Assembly: GCF_009931435.1 (NCBI RefSeq)
Contig: NZ_CP043414.1
Direction: 5' to 3' (one strand)
DNA: 64,000 bases
Origin: Escherichia coli
Lineage (GTDB): Bacteria; Pseudomonadota; Gammaproteobacteria; Enterobacterales; Enterobacteriaceae
Shown here: one piece after another, positions 11,072-57,378 of the stretch
Numbering within the stretch: the stretch's first letter is position 1
How the letters are laid out: the number at the start of each line of letters is the position of its first letter
The notes under the pieces: model-generated
Databases searched by the model: none
What the model saw: only the letters and a program-made list of their open reading frames with translations
What the model was told of the DNA's origin: nothing
Translations under genes and position numbers: made by a program

Positions 11072-11159
11072 CTTTTTTAAATTGCCCCTAGATGAATGCA
11101 CGGGCGGAGAGGAAATTCCCCTTCGCCCGTGTCAGTATAATTACCCGTTTATAGGGCGA

Positions 11160-19568: not shown

Positions 19569-19672
19569 GCCGGATGCGGCGTGAACGCCTTATCCGGCCT
19601 ACAAAAGCATGCAGATTCAATATATTGCAGAATTAACGTAGGCCTGATAAGACGCGCCAGCGTCGCATCAGG
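19569..19672. repeat. REP/BIME element (pair of inverted REP palindromes)
   Basis: gccggatgcggcgtgaacgccttatccggcctac and inverted copy gtaggcctgataagacgcgccagcgtcgcatcaggc. Confidence 0.85.
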
Positions 19673-19707
19673 CGCTGAATGCCGGATTGTTACCCGGCAT
19701 TTGTCAT

Positions 19708-24926: not shown

Positions 24927-24964
24927 GAAAAAAAAGCCCGCACTGTCAGGTGCGGGCTTTTTTC
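24927..24964 (-). terminator. thr operon attenuator terminator
   Basis: Minus-strand aaaaaagcccgcacctgacagtgcgggctttttttt hairpin plus U-tract between thrL and thrA. Confidence 0.85.
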
Positions 24965-24981
24965 TGTGTTTCCTGTACGCG

Positions 24982-25050
<69 letters not shown>

Positions 25051-43079: not shown

Positions 43080-44096
43080 ATGTCCACATTACGCCTGCTC
43101 ATCTCTGACTCTTACGATCCGTGGTTTAACCTTGCGGTGGAAGAGTGTATTTTTCGCCAGATGCCCGCCACGCAGCGCGTTCTGTTTCTCTGGCGCAATG
43201 CTGACACCGTGGTGATTGGTCGCGCGCAGAACCCGTGGAAAGAGTGTAATACCCGGCGGATGGAAGAAGATAACGTTCGCCTGGCGCGGCGCAGTAGCGG
43301 TGGCGGCGCGGTGTTCCACGATCTCGGCAATACCTGTTTTACCTTCATGGCTGGCAAGCCGGAATACGATAAAACGATCTCCACCTCGATTGTGCTCAAT
43401 GCACTGAACGCGCTCGGTGTCAGCGCCGAAGCGTCCGGACGTAACGATTTGGTGGTGAAAACCGCCGAAGGCGACCGTAAAGTCTCAGGCTCGGCCTATC
43501 GCGAAACCAAAGATCGTGGCTTCCATCACGGCACCTTGCTACTCAATGCCGACCTTAGCCGCCTGGCAAACTATCTCAACCCGGATAAAAAGAAACTGGC
43601 GGCGAAAGGCATTACGTCGGTACGTTCCCGCGTGACCAATCTGACCGAATTGCTGCCGGGAATTACCCATGAGCAGGTTTGCGAAGCCATAACCGAGGCC
43701 TTTTTCGCCCATTATGGCGAGCGTGTAGAAGCGGAAATTATCTCCCCGGACAAAACGCCGGACTTGCCGAACTTCGCCGAAACCTTTGCCCGCCAGAGTA
43801 GCTGGGAATGGAATTTCGGACAGGCTCCAGCGTTCTCGCATCTGCTGGATGAACGCTTTACCTGGGGCGGCGTAGAACTGCATTTCGACGTCGAAAAAGG
43901 CCATATCACCCGCGCCCAGGTGTTTACCGATAGCCTCAACCCCGCACCTCTGGAAGCTCTCGCCGGACGACTGCAAGGCTGCCTGTACCGCGCTGACATG
44001 CTGCAACAAGAGTGTGAAGCGCTGTTGGTTGACTTCCCTGAACAGGAAAAAGAGCTACGGGAGTTGTCGACGTGGATAGCGGGAGCGGTACGGTAA
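43080..44096 (+). CDS. lplA: lipoate-protein ligase A
   Basis: 338 aa [57 protein letters not shown]. Confidence 0.96.
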
Positions 44097-44127
44097 CTCG
44101 CTGATTAAAATATCCAGGGAAGGAAAT

Positions 44128-44391
44128 ATGATCGATTTGAAGAACCAGGAACGGGAGATTATCAATTTAATGTTCAGCCAGGGTATATCCTGACTAACCG
44201 CCGTGCGTATCAGGCATAAACTATCACTTGCTGAAGTTAGTAAAATGTTGGGTATCTCGATTAATTCTCTAAAACAAATCGAAAAGACGGAACGGCTTAG
44301 TTCAAACATCAAAAACAAAATGGCAGGAATTTATGGTTGTCCGCCAGAGTTGCTGATATGCCCTTACTGGATGACGGCTGAACATAAATGA
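44128..44391 (+). pseudogene. short XRE-type HTH ORF interrupted by an in-frame TGA; occupies the position of yjjJ in K-12
   Basis: ATG at 44128 with strong SD (GGGAAGGA); frame reads MIDLKNQEREIINLMFSQGIS-TGA-LTAVRIRHKLSLAEVSKMLGISINSLKQIEKTERLSS...; TGA at 44191-44193; HTH-like helix pattern. Confidence 0.4.
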
Positions 44392-44489
44392 ATAGATTCG
44401 TGAATAGATACTCGAATGGATTTAATTTTCTATCTATATGAAAAATAATAGTAAATCTATAAATCAGTCGCTATTGATGAATAGATACT

Positions 44490-44519
44490 AAAAAGCCGGA
44501 GCGGTCTCCCGCTCCGGCT
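44490..44519 (-). terminator. deoD rho-independent terminator
   Basis: agccggagcgg-tctc-ccgctccggct hairpin followed on the minus strand by a U-run. Confidence 0.75.
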
Positions 44520-44551
44520 TCACACGACAATCGCCTTTCAGCGAAACACAA

Positions 44552-45271
44552 TTACTCTTTATCGCCCAGCAGAACGGATTCCAGTGCGATTTTGATCATG
44601 TCGTTGAAGGTGGTCTGACGCTCAGCGGCAGTGGTTTGCTCGTGAGTGCGGATGTGGTCAGACACGGTGCAGATGGTCAGGGCTTTCGCGCCAAACTCTG
44701 CAGCCACGCCGTAGATACCAGCCGCTTCCATTTCCACGCCGAGGATGCCGTATTTTTCCATCACGTCGAACATTTCGCCGTCCGGAGAGTAGAACAGGTC
44801 AGCGGAGAACAGGTTACCAACGCGAGCATCAATGCCCAGTGCTTTAGCTGCATCTACCGCGTTACGCACCATGTCGAAGTCAGCGATAGCTGCAAAGTCA
44901 TGGTCTTTAAAACGGATGCGGTTAACTTTGGAATCGGTGCAGGCACCCATACCAATCACTACGTCACGCAGTTTTACGTGCGGCAGAACTGCGCCACAGG
45001 AACCAACGCGAATGATTTTCTTCACGCCGAAATCGGTGATCAGTTCTTTAGTGTAGATGGAGCAGGACGGGATACCCATACCGTGGCCCATTACAGAAAT
45101 TTTGCGGCCTTTGTAAGTACCGGTGAAGCCCAGCATACCGCGAACGTTGTTCACTTCACGAGCATCTTCAAGGAAAGTTTCAGCAATATACTTCGCACGC
45201 AGCGGGTCGCCTGGCATCAAAACTACGTCAGCGAAATCGCCCATTTCTGCATTAATGTGTGGAGTAGCCAT
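44552..45271 (-). CDS. deoD: purine nucleoside phosphorylase
   Basis: 239 aa [36 protein letters not shown]. Confidence 0.98.
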
Positions 45272-45327
45272 CATTTTATCCTTTTTGTGACATATTAAAG
45301 GCGGAGTCACTGCTCCGCCCAAATCCA

Positions 45328-46572
<1,245 letters not shown>

Positions 46573-46602
46573 TCAAATTTAAATGATCAGATCAGTATAC
46601 CG

Positions 46603-47925
46603 TTATTCGCTGATACGGCGATAGACAGTTGGTGTGCTTTCCGGTGCTTTATCGGCAAGTTTAATTGCCGCTTTCACCGCTTTCGCCGCTTCCTGCCAGC
46701 TGTTTTCGTCTTTCGCGTGGATAACCGCCAGCGGACGCTGGCCGTCGACCTGGTCGCCCAGACGCGCCATATCAGTAAAGCCGACGCTGTAATCGATGGT
46801 GTCAGATGCCTGACGGCGACCGCCGCCCATTGCAACCACTGCCATTCCCAGCGCGCGGGTATCCATTTCACTGACAAAACCTTCGGTATCAGCATAGACT
46901 GCTTTCGTCAGCATCGCTGTCGGCAGATACTTCGCGTAGTTCTCAACGAAGTCGGTCGGGCCTTTTTGTGCTGCCACCATACGACCAAAGACTTCTGCCG
47001 CTTTACCGTTGTCCAGCACCGCCTGCAATTTCGCGCGCGCTTCGGCGTCATCTTTCGCCAGTTTGCCGGAGATCAACATCTCCACGCACAGTGCCATCGT
47101 GACATCAAACAGACGCGGGTTACGGTACTCACCTGTCAGGAACTGCACCGCTTCACGTACTTCAACCGCGTTACCGGCACTGGAGGCCAGCACCTGATTC
47201 ATGTCGGTGAGTAGCGCGGTGGTGCGCACGCCAGCGCCGTTAGCCACGCCAACAATCGCTTCGGCAAGGGCTTCAGAGAGTTCGTAGGTCGGCATAAATG
47301 CACCGCTACCCACTTTCACGTCCATCACCAGTGCATCCAGACCTTCCGCCAGTTTCTTCGCCAGGATCGAGGCAGTGATCAGCGGGATGGAATCCACGGT
47401 TGCGGTAATATCGCGGGTCGCATAGAAACGTTTATCCGCCGGAGCCAGTGAACTGGTCTGGCCAATAATCGCCACGCCAACATCTTTAATAATTTCGCGG
47501 AAACGGTTGTCATCTGGGAAGATGTCGAAGCCAGGGATGGATTCCAGTTTGTCGAGCGTACCGCCAGTATGGCCGAGGCCGCGACCGGAGATCATCGGAA
47601 TATAGCCACCGCAGGCAGCGACCATTGGCCCCAACATCAGCGAAGTCACATCGCCGACGCCGCCGGTCGAGTGTTTATCAACAATCGGGCCATTCAGATG
47701 CAGGCTTTTCCAGTCGAGAACGGTTCCTGAATCTCGCATCGCCATCGTCAGCGAGACACGCTCCGGCATTGTCATATCGTGGAAGAAAATGGTCATCGCG
47801 AGAGCGGCAATCTGCCCTTCGGAGATAGTGTTGTCGCGAATGCCGTTGATAAAGAAGCGAATTTCTTCATCGCTCAGCGCATGACCATCACGTTTTTTAC
47901 GAATAATTTCTTGTGCGAGAAACAA
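46603..47925 (-). CDS. deoA: thymidine phosphorylase
   Basis: 440 aa [52 protein letters not shown]. Confidence 0.97.
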
Positions 47926-47974
47926 GGTAACCTCCCGTGGAATAAGTTTGAAGGCGTTGTTGCCAGATGGCGGA

Positions 47975-48058
47975 TGTTGTTATTGCCTGATGCGATGCTG
48001 ACGCATCTTACAAGGCCTACACGGCACTCGACCCGTAGGCCGGATAAGGCGTTCGCGC
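47975..48058. repeat. REP/BIME element between deoA and deoC
   Basis: gcctgatgcgatgctgacgcatcttacaaggcctac plus inverted gtaggccggataaggcgttcgcgccgcatccggc. Confidence 0.85.
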
Positions 48059-48092
48059 CGCATCCGGCATCCACCCTCTGGCAAAAGGCAGC

Positions 48093-48872
48093 TTAGTAGC
48101 TGCTGGCGCTCTTACCGTCGCCGTGGCCCAGCGCTTTCAGCAAGCTTGCCAGCAGGCTGGAAGCACCAAAGCGGTAGTGACGCGCATCTGCCCAGTCAGC
48201 ACCGAAAAGTTCATCTGCAATCGCGAGATATTTCTGCGCATCTTCCGCAGTACGCACGCCGCCCGCAGGTTTGAAACCAACGGTTTTCTCTACGCCCATA
48301 TCACGGATCACTTCCATCATGATGCGCGCGCTTTCCGGCGTCGCGTTCACTGCTACTTTACCGGTAGAGGTTTTGATGAAATCAGCACCCGCTTTAATGG
48401 AGATTTCAGACGCTTTACGGATCAGCGCTTCGTCTTTCAGTTCGCCGGTTTCAATAATCACTTTCAGCAGTACGTTCGCTGCTGCGCAAGCCTCTTTACA
48501 GGCTTTCACCAGATCAAAACCAACCTGCTCGTTACCCGCCATCAGTGCACGGTACGGGAACACTACGTCAACTTCATCGGCACCGTAGGCGATTGCCGCA
48601 CGGGTTTCTGCCAGCGCGATTTCGATGTCGTCGTTACCGTGTGGGAAGTTAGTTACCGTAGCGATACGGATTTCCGGGGTGCCCTGCTCTTTCAGCGTTT
48701 TGCGAGCAATCGGGATAAAGCGAGGGTAGATACAGATAGCGGCGGTATTGCCGACCGGAGTTTTGGCCTGATGACACAGGGCGATCACTTTCTCGTCGGT
48801 ATCGTCGTCATTCAGGGTGGTCAGGTCCATCAATTTCAGTGCACGCAGGCTGCTTGCTTTCAGATCAGTCAT
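48093..48872 (-). CDS. deoC: deoxyribose-phosphate aldolase
   Basis: 259 aa [52 protein letters not shown]. Confidence 0.98.
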
Positions 48873-48916
48873 TTCATTCTCCTGGCTTGTCGCCAATAAA
48901 ATTCACCTTGCGAGTT

Positions 48917-48932
48917 TGTTAGTATTCTAACA
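48917..48932. promoter_or_regulatory. DeoR operator-like palindrome upstream of deoC
   Basis: TGTTAGTATTCTAACA, near-match to the DeoR 16-bp palindrome, 45 bp upstream of the deoC start. Confidence 0.65.
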
Positions 48933-49129
48933 TCGACTCCGCAACACACTTCGATATACATCACAATTAAGGAAATCTACTTACAAAATTGCATTACTGT
49001 AATGCGATCTGGTTCAAATAATTCACTTTCAAATGAATGCGTCAGTGGTGGCAAACGCATCAGGATCAAAGTGAACATCACGAAACTTCTTACAATGGCG
49101 CATCACCTTCGGCATAAAAGGAACAGAAG

Positions 49130-50680
49130 ATGCCCACTTCTCATGAAAATGCACTGCAACAACGTTGCCAGCAAATTGTCACCAGCCCGGTACTTAGCCC
49201 GGAGCAGAAACGCCATTTTCTGGCGCTGGAAGCAGAAAACAATCTGCCTTACCCGGCGTTGCCTGCCGAAGCCCGCCGCGCGCTGGATGAAGGTGTAATC
49301 TGCGATATGTTTGAAGGTCATGCGCCGTATAAACCGCGCTATGTCTTACCCGATTACGCCCGTTTTTTGGCCAACGGTTCCGAATGGCTGGAGCTGGAAG
49401 GCGCAAAAGATCTTGATGACGCACTCTCTCTGCTGACCATTCTTTACCACCACGTTCCTTCGGTCACATCGATGCCGGTCTACCTGGGGCAACTGGATGC
49501 GTTGTTGCAACCGTATGTTAGAATTCTAACACAAAACGAGATCGATATTCGAATAAAACGTTTCTGGCGTTACCTCGACAGAACCCTGCCAGACGCCTTT
49601 ATGCACGCCAATATTGGCCCGTCTGATTCACCCATTACCCGTGCGATTTTACGCGCAGACGCAGAGCTGAAGCAGGTTTCACCGAACCTGACTTTTATCT
49701 ACGATCCTGAAATCACCCCTGATGACCTGCTGCTGGAAGTGGCGAAAAACATCTGTGAATGTAGCAAACCGCACATCGCCAACGGTCCCGTGCATGATAA
49801 AATTTTCACAAAAGGGAGCTACGGGATTGTGAGCTGTTACAACTCACTGCCGCTGGCGGGTGGTGGCAGTACGCTGGTACGCCTCAACCTGAAAGCCATT
49901 GCCGAGCGCAGCGAATCGCTGGATGACTTCTTTACGCGCACTCTACCGCACTACTGCCAACAGCAGATCGCCATCATCGATGCGCGGTGTGAATTCCTCT
50001 ATCAACAATCACACTTCTTTGAGAATAGCTTCCTGGTGAAAGAAGGGCTGATTAACCCTGAACGTTTTGTGCCAATGTTTGGCATGTACGGACTGGCAGA
50101 AGCGGTTAACTTGTTGTGTGAGAAAGAAGGAATTGCCGCACGTTACGGTAAAGAAGCCGCTGCGAATGAAGTGGGTTATCGCATTAGCGCGCAACTGGCG
50201 GAGTTTGTCGCCAATACCCCCGTGAAATATGGCTGGCAAAATCGCGCCATGCTACACGCACAGTCGGGGATAAGTTCCGATATCGGCACCACGCCGGGCG
50301 CGCGTTTGCCGTATGGCGATGAGCCAGATCCGATCACCCATCTGCAAACTGTCGCCCCGCATCATGCTTATTATTATTCCGGCATCAGCGACATTTTGAC
50401 GCTCGACGAAACCATCAAACGTAATCCGCAGGCGCTGGTACAGCTTTGCCTCGGTGCCTTTAAAGCCGGAATGCGTGAATTTACCGCCAATGTCAGCGGT
50501 AACGATCTGGTTCGCGTTACCGGTTATATGGTGCGTTTGTCGGATTTAGAAAAATATCGTGCCGAAGGTTCACGTACCAATACCACCTGGCTGGGAGAAG
50601 AAGCCGCACGCAACACTCGTATTCTGGAACGCCAGCCGCGCGTGATAAGCCATGAACAGCAGATGCGCTTTAGTCAGTAA
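49130..50680 (+). CDS. yjjI: glycyl-radical-enzyme-like protein YjjI
   Basis: 516 aa; C-terminal glycyl-radical-type motif LVRVTGYMV; followed by its cognate radical-SAM activase. Confidence 0.9.
49505..49520. promoter_or_regulatory. DeoR operator palindrome located inside the yjjI coding region
   Basis: Perfect 16-bp palindrome TGTTAGAATTCTAACA, 588 bp from the deoC-proximal site. Confidence 0.65.
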
Positions 50681-51515
50681 GATTATCCCCTTCTCCTGCG
50701 TTGACGGGCCAGGCAGTCGTCTGGCTCTGTTTTTACAGGGCTGCAATCTGCGCTGCAAAAACTGTCACAATCCGTGGACGATGGGGCGCTGTAATGATTG
50801 CGGTAAGTGCGTGCCACAGTGTCCGCATCAGGCGTTGCAGATTATTAACAGCAAAGTAGTGTGGAACGCAGCCGTCTGCGAGCAGTGTGATACCTGTCTG
50901 AAGATGTGTCCGCAACATGCCACGCCGATGGCGCAATCCATGAGCGTGGATGAGGTGCTTAGACATATCCGCAAAGCGGTGCTGTTTATCGAAGGGATAA
51001 CGGTAAGCGGCGGCGAAGCCACGACCCAGCTGCCGTTTGTGGTGGCGCTTTTTACTGCCATCAAAAACGATCCGCAACTGTGCCATCTCACCTGTCTGGT
51101 GGACAGTAACGGCATGTTGAGAGAAACCGGCTGGGAAAAATTGCTCCCGGTGTGCGACGGCGCGATGCTCGATCTCAAAGCGTGGGGAAGCGAATGTCAT
51201 CAGCAGCTAACCGGACGCGATAATCAGCAGATCAAGCGCAGCATTAGTCTGCTTGCCGAGCGCGGCAAACTGGCAGAACTGCGTTTGCTGGTAATCCCAG
51301 GCCATGTGGATTATTTGCAGCATATCGATGAGCTGGCGGCGTTTATCAAGGGACTTGGCGATGTTCCGGTACGCCTGAACGCGTTTCATGCTCACGGCGT
51401 GTATGGCGAGGCGCAAAGCTGGGCGAGCGCCACGCCGGAAGACGTTAAGCAATTGGCTGATGCGTTACGGGAGCACGGGGTGAGCCGATTAATATTTCCG
51501 GCGCTGTATTTGTGA
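50652..51515 (+). CDS. yjjW: glycyl-radical enzyme activating enzyme (radical SAM) YjjW
   Basis: 287 aa; CNLRCKNC (CxxxCxxC) radical-SAM cluster motif plus ferredoxin-like Cys clusters ([24 protein letters not shown]). Confidence 0.9.
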
Positions 51516-51740
51516 CATGGCGGATGCAGCCTACGGTTCGGCACAGACCTGTAGGCATGATAAGACGCGTCAGCGTCGCATCAGGCATTGTGCGCCAACT
51601 GCCGGATGCGGCGTGAACGCCTTATCCGGCCTACGGTTCGGCACAGACTTGTAGGCATGATAAGACGCGTCAGCGTCGCATCAGGCATTGTGCGCCGACT
51701 GCCGGATGCGGTGTGAACGCCTTATCCGGCTTACGAAGGG
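51516..51740. repeat. BIME cluster with two tandem 100-bp REP-containing units
   Basis: Unit cctacggttcggcacagac(c/t)tgtaggcatgataagacgcgtcagcgtcgcatcaggcattgtgcgcc(a/g)actgccggatgcgg(c/t)gtgaacgccttatccgg repeated at 51531-51630 and 51631-51730. Confidence 0.9.
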
Positions 51741-51744
51741 CAGA

Positions 51745-52527
51745 CTACCCACGAACGTTAAACACCGCATACGTGTTATTAAGCAACACTTCGGCAATCT
51801 CATCCGCGGGTTCCGGGCGTAACTCGCACAGCACGGCAAACACACGGGCGGCCTGTTCAGGGCGATTAGGCTGCCCCTGAAAACCATTGAGCGGCATATC
51901 CGGTGCGTCGGTTTCCAACAACAACGATGCCAACGGTAATTTTGCGATGACATCGCGGGTTTTACTGGCGCGTGGATAGGTGATAGTACCGCCTACGCCA
52001 ATTTTGTAGCCCAGCTGCACAAACCGTTCGGCCTGTTGCTGGCTGCCAGAAAAACCATGAACCACACCAGTGCGTGGCAAATTTTGGCGTTTAAGATGCA
52101 TCGCCAGTTTGTCGTGCGTGCGCCGTGAATGAAGGATCACCGGCAGATCGTAGCGTTTCGCCAGTTTCAGTTGTTCATCAAGCAACCTCTGCTGCCTCTC
52201 AAATTGCGGATCGTCACCAAAGAGATCCAGGCCGATCTCCCCCACCGCCACCACCTTCGTCGGACGTCTTTCCAACGCCTGCTGTAATTGATCCAGCGAT
52301 GCATCGTTATGTTTTTCCAACATCCCCGGATGCAACCCTAAAGCGGCATACAGTGGTTGATAATTTTCCGCTAACGCCTGCACACGGGCAAAATTTGCCG
52401 CCTCGGTGGCCGGAACAATGATCTTGCCTACGCCCGCTTGTGCCGCGCGTTGCAGGCTGGCCTCTTCATCGCCACTAAACGGCGGGAAATCAAAATGGCA
52501 GTGGGTGTCGATAAAACGGCAAATCAA
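51745..52527 (-). CDS. yjjV: TatD-family metal-dependent hydrolase YjjV
   Basis: 260 aa MICRFIDTHCHFDFPPFSGDEEASLQRAAQAGVGKIIVPA. Confidence 0.92.
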   Translation of the reverse strand: MICRFIDTHCHFDFPPFSGDEEASLQRAAQAGVGKIIVPATEAANFARVQALAENYQPLYAALGLHPGMLEKHNDASLDQLQQALERRPTKVVAVGEIGLDLFGDDPQFERQQRLLDEQLKLAKRYDLPVILHSRRTHDKLAMHLKRQNLPRTGVVHGFSGSQQQAERFVQLGYKIGVGGTITYPRASKTRDVIAKLPLASLLLETDAPDMPLNGFQGQPNRPEQAARVFAVLCELRPEPADEIAEVLLNNTYAVFNVRG

Positions 52528-53597
52528 GCCAAATCCTCATTGTTAAATGTCGGGTCGTTCGCCTGTGGAGCGTCTATCACCTCGGTAACCAGCGTATCGT
52601 TGGCGACGGGTGCAGGCGGAATAACGATCGACTCCGGCGTCACCACCGGCACCAGATGGCGGCTCAGCGGCGCTTTTTCAGTCAATAACTTACCGACCGT
52701 TGCCAGAAAATAACGCCCGCATAAACGCCCAAGTTTATAGTCTTCACGCAGCGCCGGAATCCGACTGCCGAGCGCGATACTATGTAATGGCTTCGGCGGA
52801 TAAATTTCGAATATCCTCAACTGGCCCGGTGGTTTCTCAATAAATTGCTGAATCTCACGATAGCTGGTTTCATGATGCTGCACCAGATTGACCAGCGGCT
52901 GCAGGCTACTGTCACCCAACCAGCGTTCCATGCGTTTGAACCACTGCGGCGTATAGTACATTTGTGACGGCACAGTGCGGATGACGACCAACGTTTTTGC
53001 GCCCTGCCTTGCCGCCTCTTTAACCGGGATCGCATCACTGATCCCGCCATCCAGGTAATTAATGCCTTCCAGCGACACTCCGCTACGATAAAAGCCAGGT
53101 ATTGCACTGGAGGCGCGAATCACATCCAGCCAGTTCTGTTTGGTTGGCAAAAAGTAATTCGGCGCATAGTCATCCTGACGACAAGCGCACATATAAAACG
53201 ATTTGCCGCTGTCAAATAGCCGCGCTGCGGTGTCCATTTGCAACGGCATCTGGCTTGCGGTGGCCTCCACCAGCCAGTCGAGATCGATAAGATTTCCTCC
53301 ACGGACAAAGCGCAATGGATCGAAAAATTCGCGTTTTGTGGTATAGCGCATGATGACTTTGCGCGCGTAACCGGGCTGATTGCAGATATACGCCGAGAGG
53401 TTCTGCGCCCCGGCAGATGTGCCGAGATAAAGATCGAAAGGATTAAACTGCGCGCGCATAAACTCATCCAGCACGCCAGCTGTGAAAATTCCACGCTGCC
53501 CGCCGCCTTCGCACACCAGAGCTATTCGTCCAGGCTGGAACGGCCTTAGCGACAACGGCGCAATATTACCAAGCGTTACAGGTATTCGCTGCCCCAC
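52524..53597 (-). CDS. yjjU: patatin-like phospholipase YjjU
   Basis: About 357 aa; patatin motifs GGGQRG and GTSAG; start codon uncertain (GTG). Confidence 0.88.
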   Translation of the reverse strand: MGQRIPVTLGNIAPLSLRPFQPGRIALVCEGGGQRGIFTAGVLDEFMRAQFNPFDLYLGTSAGAQNLSAYICNQPGYARKVIMRYTTKREFFDPLRFVRGGNLIDLDWLVEATASQMPLQMDTAARLFDSGKSFYMCACRQDDYAPNYFLPTKQNWLDVIRASSAIPGFYRSGVSLEGINYLDGGISDAIPVKEAARQGAKTLVVIRTVPSQMYYTPQWFKRMERWLGDSSLQPLVNLVQHHETSYREIQQFIEKPPGQLRIFEIYPPKPLHSIALGSRIPALREDYKLGRLCGRYFLATVGKLLTEKAPLSRHLVPVVTPESIVIPPAPVANDTLVTEVIDAPQANDPTFNNEDLA

Positions 53598-53718
53598 CTC
53601 TGCCTTCCTGTTTTTGTTGTGAAAGAATGACAAAGTAACGCAATTTATTATTCGCTAAAACCGCAAAAGCCAGTCCGCTGGACTGGCTTTGGATAAAATT
53701 TTCTTAATGGTCTGAAAT

Positions 53719-53880
53719 CTAGGGTCGTTTTCGGCCCATGAACAAACTCACCAGGAACAGAATAATCCCGACGACAAAGACAATTTTAGCTGCGCCCGCA
53801 GCGGTACCGGCCAGACCACCAAACCCAAGTGCGGCGGCGATTAACGCGATAACCAGAAATATGATGCCCCAACGAAACAT
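53719..53880 (-). CDS. ytjA: small membrane protein YtjA (UPF0391)
   Basis: 53 aa [53 protein letters not shown]. Confidence 0.88.
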
Positions 53881-54008
53881 ATAAGCGTCTCCTTTACCAT
53901 AGTTAATGTCACCGCTTGATATGAGCGTGAAAATCACTCAATGCGATATTTTTAGTGTGGTGCACATCGCGCCTCCCGACAAAGTTCGGGAGGTCGAATT
54001 ACGACGAA

Positions 54009-54614
54009 TTACTTAGTTTTCAGATCATTTTTAACGCTTTTCACACCATCTACCGCTTTGGCGATACTTTCAGCACGGTCACTTTGTGCCTGAGAATCTA
54101 CGGTACCGGAGAGCTGAACCACGCCATCGGTGGTTTCAACTTTCACTTTACGTGAAGGGACGATATCGTCCGCCAGCAGCTTGGCTTTGATTTCACTGGT
54201 GGTGGCGGTGTCACCCGCGTAGCCCTTCACAGAACCTTCTTTAGCGTCGCGAACGTGCAGTTTGTCGCTGACAGAGGTCACGCCTTCAACGCCTTTCGCC
54301 ACTTTCACTGCCTCTTCGGCCTGGGCCTGGCTTTCAACGAAACCGCTCAGGGTCACGACTTTTTGATCGGTTTTGACAGAGATATCGGTGCTCTTGATGT
54401 TGTCATGATCCACCAGGGCCGCCTTCACTTTCGCGGTGATAGCGCTGTCATCCATGAAATTACCGACTTTATTCATAGAGCTATCGACTTTTTGCCCTGC
54501 GCTTTCATTGGTTGTGTGCGCGTTGTTTTCTGCGTAGGCAGAGCCGGTCGCGACGGCAGAGGTCAACATTACAGCCAGCAGAGTTTTCGAAATCTTCAGT
54601 CTTGTCATAGTCAT
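54009..54614 (-). CDS. osmY: osmotically inducible periplasmic protein OsmY
   Basis: 201 aa [28 protein letters not shown], two BON domains. Confidence 0.96.
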
Positions 54615-55006
54615 CGATTTATTCCTGTATGTTTGCTCGTAATTTGAGCCTGGCAACACGAGGTTGCATTGCTGAATAGGGAGAGACTTCACCCTCTACA
54701 GAAGTCAATGGTCGTTATCACAAAAGCGATGGCTGATGAATAACGACCATTACAGCCTCTGAATCAGTTATTAATATCGGTAGAATGACAATCGACGGCT
54801 TTAGATACTGATATCTACGCATTGAACGGTATTTAACGCCGTCAGAAATGTCATTACTTTGTTAAATATAGATCACAATTTTGAAACCGCTCGGGATATC
54901 CCCTAAAACATAAGCAAAAGTGAATGTTTTAAGAACATTCCGTAAGCGGCTAATAAGGAAGGGAAATTGACAGGGCGCAGCGGCTACCGCGCCCTGGAGG
55001 CAAGAA

Positions 55007-56596
55007 TTAATGCTCGCGAGTCTGGTGGAACTGAACGTCCGGATAACGTTCCTGCGCCAGGCGCAGGTTGACCATGCTGGTAGCGATGTAAGCGAGGTTA
55101 TCGCCGCCATCAAGCGCCAGTTGGCTTTCGTTCTTACGCTTGAACTCTTCGAATTTCTTCGCGTCCGCACATTCTACCCAGCGTGCAGTGGCAACGTTGA
55201 CTGACTCATACACTGCTTCAACGTTGTATTCGCTCTTCAGGCGCGCTACCACCACATCAAACTGCAGCACACCAACCGCACCAACGATCAGGTCGTTGTT
55301 GGAAATCGGACGGAACACCTGCACCGCGCCCTCTTCGGAAAGCTGTACCAGCCCTTTGAGCAGCTGTTTTTGCTTCAGCGGATCTTTCAGGCGGATACGA
55401 CGGAACAGTTCCGGCGCAAAGTTCGGGATACCGGTGAACTTCATCATCTCACCCTGGGTAAAGGTGTCGCCGATCTGAATAGTGCCGTGGTTGTGCAGAC
55501 CAAGGATGTCGCCCGGATACGCTTCTTCAACATGCGAACGGTCGCCCGCCATAAAGGTCAGCGCGTCGGAGATCACCACATCTTTCGCGGTGCGCACCTG
55601 ACGCAGCTTCATGCCTTTTTCATATTTACCGGATACCACGCGCATAAACGCCACGCGGTCGCGGTGTTTCGGGTCCATGTTGGCCTGAATTTTAAATACG
55701 AAGCCGGTAAATTTATCTTCGCTCGCCTCTACGGTACGGGTATCAGTCTGACGCGGCATCGGCGCAGGTGCCCACTCTACCAGGCCATCCAGCATATGAT
55801 CGACGCCGAAGTTACCCAGCGCAGTACCAAAGAACACTGGAGTGATTTCGCCCGCAAGGAACAATTCTTTGTCGAACTCGTTAGACGCGCCTTTCACCAG
55901 TTCCAGTTCGTCACGCAGCTGCTGTGCCAGATCTTCACCAACCGCAGCATCGAGATCCGGGTTATTCAGCCCTTTAACAATACGGACTTCCTGAATGGTG
56001 TGACCTTTACCACTCTGATAGAGATAGGTTTCGTCTTTATAAAGGTGGTAAACGCCTTTAAACAGCTTGCCGCAGCCAATCGGCCAGGTGATCGGCGCAC
56101 AGCCGATTTTCAGCTCGTTCTCAACTTCATCGAGCAGCTCCATCGGATCGCGGATATCACGGTCAAGTTTGTTCATAAAGGTGAGGATCGGCGTATCGCG
56201 CAGACGGGTAACTTCCATCAGCTTACGGGTACGATCTTCAACACCTTTTGCGGCGTCGATAACCATCAGGCAGCAGTCCACCGCCGTCAGGGTACGATAG
56301 GTATCTTCCGAGAAGTCTTCGTGCCCGGGGGTGTCGAGCAGGTTAACCAGGCAGTCGTGATACGGAAACTGCATCACAGAGGTGGTAATGGAGATCCCAC
56401 GCTGCTTTTCCATCTCCATCCAGTCCGACTTAGCGTGCTGGTTGGAACCACGGCCTTTTACTGTACCGGCAGTCTGAATGGCCTGTCCGAACAGCAGCAC
56501 CTTCTCGGTGATGGTCGTTTTACCGGCGTCCGGGTGAGAAATAATGGCAAAAGTGCGGCGCTTCGCCACCTCTTGCAAATAAGGAGACAACGTCAT
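55007..56596 (-). CDS. prfC: peptide chain release factor 3
   Basis: 529 aa [37 protein letters not shown]; GTPase. Confidence 0.97.
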
Positions 56597-56686
56597 AATT
56601 CTTTCTTCTTGAGTAAGCGGCATCGCGCCGCGCTTGTTGAAAACGAAAAATTGCGGCTATTTTACCCATCAACGGGGGGGAGGCAA

Positions 56687-57364
56687 TCAGTGTTTACACA
56701 GGAGCTGCTCCAGTTCGTGCAACGAAGAAACGGTCCAGGTAGGCGCGATGCCTTCTGGTTGCTCGCGATTGTGCGCATTCAGCCAGCAGGTCGCAAGCCC
56801 GGCGTTGATGCCACCGAGAATATCGGACTCGGCAGTGTCGCCAACCATCAGCACGCGTGAACGGTCAGGATTGCCCGCCTGTTCCAGCGCATAATCGAAA
56901 ATTTTCTTATTCGGTTTGGCTACGCCAACTTCTTCGGAAATCACCAACAAATCGAAATAATCACGCAGGCCCGTGCGTTCCAGACGCACTTGCTGCAAGG
57001 CGCTAAAGCCGTTGGTGATGATGCCGATTTTGGCGTTGCCGCGAATGGCATTAAGCAGGGAAACCGCGCCCGGCAGCGGCGTGCAAATTTCCGCCATCGC
57101 ATTAATGAAGGCCTCGTTGAGTTTACCTGGCTCGACGTTCAGCCGTTCGGCCCAGCTCTCAAAACGCCCGTGCTGAAGCTGTAATGAAGTGATCGCGCCG
57201 TTTTGATAATCCACCCACAGTGGCTTGTTAACGGCCTGATAGTCCTGAAAATCTTCAGCGGTAAAGGTGACGCTGTAATCAAGAAACATCCGCTGCAGGC
57301 CGGTGAATGAGTCAAAGGTAAACAGCGTTTCATCGGCATCAAAGAAAATCCAGTCCCACTTCAT
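56687..57364 (-). CDS. yjjG: HAD-family pyrimidine 5'-nucleotidase YjjG
   Basis: 225 aa [31 protein letters not shown]. Confidence 0.95.
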
Positions 57365-57378
57365 TATTCCACCTTGTC

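Follow-up and report, generated by a model that had tools for sequence, protein, structure and literature searches.

BIME-2 elements, which were defined by Bachellier, Gilson and coworkers (summarized in PMC3333891), combine z2 and y units in multiple tandem copies separated by short linkers, and their number of copies at any one locus varies among strains (PMC3333891). BIME-1 elements are single copies in which Y is paired with Z1, with a long L linker that often holds an IHF site (PMC3333891). BIME-2 are enriched in sites of gyrase cleavage, which fall chiefly in the y units and do not depend on transcription, although not all BIME-2 are cleaved but a subset only (PMC6379681), and BIME-2 have been proposed as topological barriers (PMC10592627). 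REP325 was shown to terminate transcription in a partly Rho-dependent manner and also to stabilise mRNA, and where REPs lie between convergent genes, both genes tend, genome-wide, to be more highly expressed (bioRxiv 10.64898/2026.03.23.713779). REPs whose start is no more than 15 nt from a stop codon depress translation, according to a passage of PMC12306157 on the work of Liang, Rudd and Deutscher (2015). REP325 is also the source from which naRNA4 was first reported (PMC4550694), and the Rfam naRNA4 model was built on its Y+Z2 unit.

We find that the interval between yjjW and yjjV in an Escherichia coli genome (a stretch of 64,000 nt, hereafter the window) is occupied by a BIME-2 array, in which Y and Z2 REPs alternate in tandem with short linkers between them. 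The array is real but ordinary, and a BIME-2 at yjjW–yjjV is already known in K-12; the annotation of NC_000913.3 has no repeat feature there. Nearly all E. coli have a counterpart of the array at this site. We put a probability of roughly 0.88 on the joint explanation, that is, a BIME-2 array with a counterpart in K-12, a putative function as a two-way 3'-UTR, a possible gyrase site, and exchange of units between copies.

Organization of the yjjW–yjjV array

The gap between the convergent ORFs measures 229 nt (51516-51744), and the BIME-2 array lies wholly between the two stop codons. On the plus strand, yjjW encodes a glycyl-radical enzyme activase (50652..51515; 397.7 bits with NCBIfam TIGR04041, whose cut-off is 250.2), and on the minus strand yjjV encodes a TatD-family metal-dependent hydrolase (51745..52527; NCBIfam NF008522, 565.4 bits against 481); both assignments rest on the ORF, the family match and the RefSeq annotation of matching records. 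The array sets in directly past the yjjW stop (TGA, 51513-51515) and ends 10 nt short of the yjjV stop (TAG, read from 51747 to 51745). At matching E. coli loci, RefSeq annotation places yjjI and yjjW on one strand and yjjV and yjjU on the other. A preliminary description had located the repeat at 51516-51740 between yjjW and yjjV, a span that takes in nearly the entire 229-nt intergenic region, and both RefSeq and NCBIfam agree with that placement.

We note two further features of the surrounding chromosome. Over the 16 kb from 44000 to 60000, the window is 99% identical to the E. coli chromosomes 2020CK-00188 and R32_14_1F and about 96% identical to the remaining best-listed E. coli records, which places it in a somewhat divergent lineage filed under E. 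coli. In addition, K-12 yjjV contains a mapped intragenic sigma-54 binding motif, CTGGCATCGTTATTGCT (site IS56), and a second mapped sigma-54 site, IS57, lies inside K-12 yjjW (PMC4591121). The position equivalent to IS56 in the window (51917-51932, minus strand, inside yjjV) reads TGGCATCGTTGTTGTT; because the TTGCT of the motif is TTGTT here, this site may not bind.

Tandem Repeats Finder called a single array, to which no strand applies, at 51529-51735 (period 100, 2.1 copies, 96% matches, no indels, score 386), and a separate repeat search returned two 100-nt copies with a start-to-start distance of 100. In the best register, with unit starts at 51529-51531, the units differ at exactly three positions (51549 C/T, 51597 A/G and 51612 C/T). 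The remaining registers give 4-10 mismatches, because the array opens with a truncated REP and, on the right, runs out into unique flanking sequence. Both the repeat finder and the register scan thus bear out the two near-identical 100-bp units with three mismatches that had been reported initially.

From left to right, the array consists of a truncated Y, Z2, Y, Z2 and Y, five REPs in strict alternation and opposite orientation. Each unit holds one Z2 on the minus strand and one Y on the plus strand, in agreement with the inverted REP pair per unit seen by the preliminary description, to which we add a fifth REP, the internally deleted Y at 51519-51534. This first Y (GGCGGATGCAGCCTAC; 51519..51534, plus strand), recognized from its sequence and from comparison of loci, lacks the hairpin apex, and its predicted hairpin reaches only -4 kcal/mol. 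The first tail-side linker (16 nt, GGTTCGGCACAGACCT; 51535..51550, plus strand) runs from the CTAC tail of the truncated Y to the GTAG of Z2, and in a local fold prediction the CCUAC...GUAGG tails pair over it. The first Z2 (51551..51586, minus strand) reads GCCTGATGCGACGCTGACGCGTCTTATCATGCCTAC on the minus strand, with a predicted RNA hairpin of -15.3 kcal/mol on the plus and -14.8 kcal/mol on the minus strand. It is joined through the first head-side linker (14 nt, ATTGTGCGCCAACT; 51587..51600, plus strand), which holds no IHF consensus, to the first full Y (GCCGGATGCGGCGTGAACGCCTTATCCGGCCTAC; 51601..51634, plus strand), which has 0 mismatches, recurs as an identical sequence at 19569 and has predicted hairpins of -21.3 / -20.9 kcal/mol.

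The second unit follows the same plan. A tail-side linker (16 nt, GGTTCGGCACAGACTT; 51635..51650, plus strand) leads to a second Z2, found by motif scan at 51651..51686 on the minus strand and identical to the first, and a head-side linker (14 nt, ATTGTGCGCCGACT; 51687..51700, plus strand) leads to the second full Y (51701..51734, plus strand). The latter carries two substitutions (GCGGTG, GGCTTAC), and its predicted hairpin amounts to -19.8 kcal/mol on the plus and -15.6 kcal/mol on the minus strand. Between this last Y and the yjjV stop lies a non-repeat flank, GAAGGGCAGA (51735..51744, plus strand), common to some other strains and different in others.

Predicted RNA hairpins on either strand therefore cluster at about -20 kcal/mol for Y and about -15 kcal/mol for Z2. 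The fold of the whole gap was predicted at -120.4 kcal/mol for the plus and -110.8 kcal/mol for the minus strand, with z-scores of -6.3 and -5.5 relative to shuffled controls. The global minimum-energy fold consists of long-range pairing between Y and Z2 instead of individual hairpins, and the form that the array takes in vivo is consequently uncertain. Short ORFs of 42-55 aa that run through the repeats were rejected as by-products of the repeat; their conservation is impossible, as the number of units varies.

Alternation of Y and Z2, short linkers and tandem copies together fit the published definition of BIME-2. Indeed, the array is composed of Y and Z2 units in alternation, its linkers measure 14 and 16 nt, its tandem copies vary in number, and its site is extragenic. 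In 100 dinucleotide shuffles of the window, the number of Y or Z2 matches expected by chance was 0, while further copies of the motifs lie at 19569-19673, 48035 and 59361 of the window. A 651-nt query containing the array returned 184,497 matches in 5,425 of 5,426 E. coli genomes; the median of 36 matches per genome identifies a dispersed repeat family. The assignment to classical REP/BIME sequences made at the outset therefore stands, both on the recurrence of Y and Z2 in the window and on this median of 36 query matches per genome.

The regular spacing of short palindromic repeats gives the array a superficial likeness to a miniature CRISPR array, but no more than that. What separates the Y copies is Z2 with its linkers, which is itself repeated, so that unique spacers are missing; the 100-bp repeat is present dozens of times per genome; and the neighbours are yjjI, yjjW, yjjV and yjjU, with no cas genes among them. 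None of the CRISPR families in Rfam was matched. We accordingly give the CRISPR reading virtually no credence and regard it as refuted by the sequence, given the lack of unique spacers and of cas genes and the dispersed nature of the family; the preliminary description had already dismissed it, for reasons that the repeated inter-Y sequence and the neighbouring genes uphold. The RRS "replication risk sequences" (222-bp repeats; PMC10592627) were ruled out as well, their loci lying elsewhere, near dusC and lysO.

An early remark that such repeats can act as IHF sites turned out not to apply here. The array is a BIME-2 with no L linker, and the IHF pattern WATCAANNNNTTR gave 0 matches in it on either strand with up to one mismatch allowed. 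A second REP pair in the window has a different layout: a Y (19569-19602, plus strand) and a Z2 (19638-19673, minus strand) flank a 35-nt linker containing ATTCAATATATTG. Judged by its sequence, this linker resembles an IHF-binding L linker, and the linker region scores barely above the Rfam threshold for ES036 (38.7 bits versus 37.6). Single Y-type REPs occur at 48035-48068 (minus strand) and 59361-59394 (plus strand), with 1 and 2 mismatches to Y, respectively. Further Rfam matches above threshold in the window are a sok antitoxin RNA (9536-9688, plus strand, 116.9 bits), tpke11 (11072-11149, minus strand, 69.6 bits), the threonine operon leader (24927-25046, minus strand, 121 bits) and three tandem tRNA genes (59531-59849, plus strand), which are tRNA-Leu by the annotation of the closest relative.

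Variation of unit number among strains and species

The length of the yjjW–yjjV gap takes discrete values in E. coli, namely about 30 (33 in the case of a lone Y), 112, 213-231, 314, 414-419 and 515-518 nt, which correspond to 0-5 units. In a non-random sample, obtained by searching with the flanks only, listing 60 genomes down the ranking and retaining the 53 in which both flanks were joined, 0, 1, 2, 3, 4 and 5 units were present in 1, 11, 11, 4, 8 and 18 E. coli genomes, respectively, among the matches listed. The comparison of copy number among strains that the preliminary description had proposed as a check thus reveals a variable locus, with 0-5 units in the E. coli sampled.

The right junction also differs among strains. 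In K-12-type strains, the last Y has the yjjV stop codon in its CTAC tail, and the YjjV protein, of 259 aa, ends in NVP. In the window and in some other strains, the 10-nt flank GAAGGGCAGA intervenes before the stop, which again reads CTAC; YjjV then has 260 aa and ends in NVRG. At the left end, a full Y occupies the position of the truncated Y (51519-51534) in E. coli SCU-124 and in E. albertii.

Strains differ in the order in which the variants of the unit follow one another. Unit 1 of the window matches units 2 and 3 of DG351-2, an unrelated strain, at 100% identity, and unit 2 is 98% identical to unit 2 of near relatives as against 96% to unit 1 of the window. Since unit 2 is nearer to its counterpart in the relatives than to its own neighbour, the two-unit state is shared and does not reflect a fresh duplication. 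On this sequence evidence, units appear to have been shuffled by unequal exchange. The number of units would shift when the 100-101-bp units recombine unequally or slip, and the REP-associated transposase TnpA-REP may assist such changes.

In a scan of species-representative genomes, other Escherichia carry Y/Z2 arrays of 2.1, 3.9 and 10.9 copies at the same site; the last, in Escherichia sp. MOD1-EC7003, is the largest array found there, with 10.9 units in a 1117-nt gap. E. albertii has one unit together with its full leading Y. In Citrobacter, the site holds a different 84-bp REP pair, in arrays of 5.1 and 5.7 copies, or single REPs, while Salmonella enterica subsp. arizonae has a single REP pair. 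In all Escherichia, Citrobacter and Salmonella loci examined, a REP arm begins 2-4 nt past the yjjW stop. The degenerate pattern for the end of yjjW also matched many unrelated loci, which were left out of the comparison. Among them are five near-identical loci on five contigs of Citrobacter freundii MAG origin whose flanks are unrelated to yjjW but closely alike on either side of the match; from their sequence, these look like a multi-copy mobile or repeated element.

Such variability is what one would expect if the array were selfish or neutral repeated DNA with no function specific to the locus, its presence and size set by proliferation of REPs, through TnpA-REP activity and unequal recombination, at a site where insertions are harmless. 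Arrays in Escherichia span 0 to about 11 units and every class in between is common, the type of REP at the yjjW–yjjV site differs by genus, and the gap between two convergent 3' ends would be the least constrained kind of intergenic region; moreover, BIMEs are substrates for in vitro cleavage and recombination by TnpA-REP (PMC3333891). However, every Escherichia, Citrobacter and Salmonella locus examined has some REP in the gap, at a fixed start 2-4 nt past the yjjW stop, which suggests that the site has been occupied, and its occupation maintained, for a long time. The genome-wide link between REPs at convergent genes and raised expression likewise speaks against a purely neutral repeat. We regard neutrality as a serious possibility that falls somewhat short of probable, and we note that it and our preferred explanation, a BIME-2 array with effects on the flanking transcripts, are not mutually exclusive.

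The yjjW–yjjV gap may, on another view, have harboured REPs since ancient times, with selection preserving its occupation, and be one in which individual lineages amplified their own REP pairs independently. We consider this suggestion speculative and rather unlikely. Were there selection for a tunable barrier between yjjI-yjjW and yjjU-yjjV, be it topological or at the 3' ends of the RNAs, unit number would constitute a heritable expression dial and not the outcome of drift.

Possible roles at the converging 3' ends

Given the convergent arrangement, the yjjW mRNA would enter the array from one side and the yjjV mRNA from the opposite side, and both transcripts would end in the array or read through it. 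The hairpins, predicted at about -15 to -21 kcal/mol each, may block 3'-to-5' exonucleases and may also give partial, Rho-assisted termination, the array acting as a two-way 3'-UTR. By analogy with REP325, the most likely role of the yjjW–yjjV array is probably that of a two-way 3'-UTR block and partial terminator for both mRNAs. In the supplements of the REP325 preprint, yjjW occurs solely in a differential-expression table (bioRxiv 10.64898/2026.03.23.713779).

A scan of 51300-51950 for intrinsic terminators (a G+C-rich hairpin followed by a T-run) found 0 sites on either strand, and any termination would therefore be of the REP type, partly dependent on Rho. The terminator role that the preliminary description had offered among its general possibilities is narrowed in the same way: the intrinsic, T-run form is not present, which leaves the REP-type, partly Rho-dependent form as the sole remaining kind.

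In the DNA itself, the Y units may form a transcription-independent site of gyrase binding and cleavage. The array is thus possibly a DNA gyrase site, again by analogy with other BIME-2; neither yjjV nor yjjW is named in the available part of the supplementary files of the gyrase study (PMC6379681). Whatever the role, strains with a lone Y (33-nt gap) or with one unit exist. The array is therefore dispensable and could at most modulate.

The closeness of the outermost REPs to the stop codons raises the alternative that each gene is translated less because of the REP nearest its stop codon, the terminating ribosome stalling and inducing trans-translation. Geometry lends this some weight: on the yjjV mRNA, the last Y starts 10 nt past the stop codon, with its stem at about the 15th nt, and in K-12-type strains the yjjV stop codon sits inside the CTAC tail of a REP. 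In the window, however, those distances are borderline, and the Y in question forms the weakest minus-strand Y hairpin (predicted at -15.6 kcal/mol). Next to the yjjW stop lies the internally deleted copy of Y, which barely folds (predicted at -4 kcal/mol). We hold such an effect on translation to be improbable here, and prefer the reading of the array as a 3'-UTR block and partial terminator.

The units might also be genes for naRNA4-like nucleoid-associated RNAs, which with HU would bridge DNA cruciforms and condense the chromosome. In fact, each unit matches the Rfam naRNA4 model (RF02564) on the minus strand above the gathering score of 59.5, at 51554..51631 (79.1 bits) and 51654..51731 (71.4 bits), whereas the plus-strand scores of 54.7 and 51.9 fall below it. 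Because yjjV has the minus strand as its sense strand, the units would be transcribed as part of the yjjV 3'-UTR. Yet RF02564 models any Y+Z2 unit, and a match demonstrates a BIME-2 unit only; because the model was built on such a unit, the two matches independently confirm the unit type and not a separate RNA gene. No sigma-70 promoter consensus was found in or near the array in the scan of 51300-51950. In addition, the function of naRNA4 is itself disputed: according to a 2026 preprint, whose group counts one of the original authors among its members, REP325/naRNA4 causes no measurable nucleoid compaction and REP-REP contacts were not seen. We therefore judge it very unlikely that the units are naRNA4-like genes, and retain their identification as BIME-2 units within a putative two-way 3'-UTR.

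Comparison with described repeat systems

The main value of this work lies in correct annotation, as the label BIME-2/REP prevents the array from being confused with a CRISPR, a small-RNA gene or short ORFs. Beyond this, the locus offers a natural series for testing the effects of REP arrays, since E. coli strains have 0-5 units and a sister species has about 11, and the array could double as a strain-typing marker.

Among the systems described above, BIME-1 and IHF-binding (RIP-type) elements share with the yjjW–yjjV array an inverted REP pair that includes Y, but the array has neither the long L linker nor an IHF consensus. REP325/naRNA4, at the yjdM-yjdN locus, is likewise a tandem series of Y+Z2 units of about 77 nt, each followed by a linker. 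It comprises six units between co-directional genes, in contrast to the two units between convergent genes found here (PMC4550694; bioRxiv 10.64898/2026.03.23.713779).

A counterpart is the K-12 MG1655 locus, which has the same flanking genes, the same truncated Y past the yjjW stop, the same Y/Z2 unit and the same linkers. It differs in having four units of 101 bp in a 419-nt gap, as opposed to two units of 100 bp in the window; the Z2 loop of the window, GCGTCAGCGTC, has one base fewer, which accounts for the length of 100 bp instead of 101 bp. Compared with BIME-2 in general, whose alternating and opposite Y and Z2, short linkers, tandem and extragenic arrangement, good conservation among the tandem copies of a locus and strain-dependent copy number at a locus are all present here, we see no difference of substance, the minor ones being the 100-bp units and the internal deletion in the first Y.
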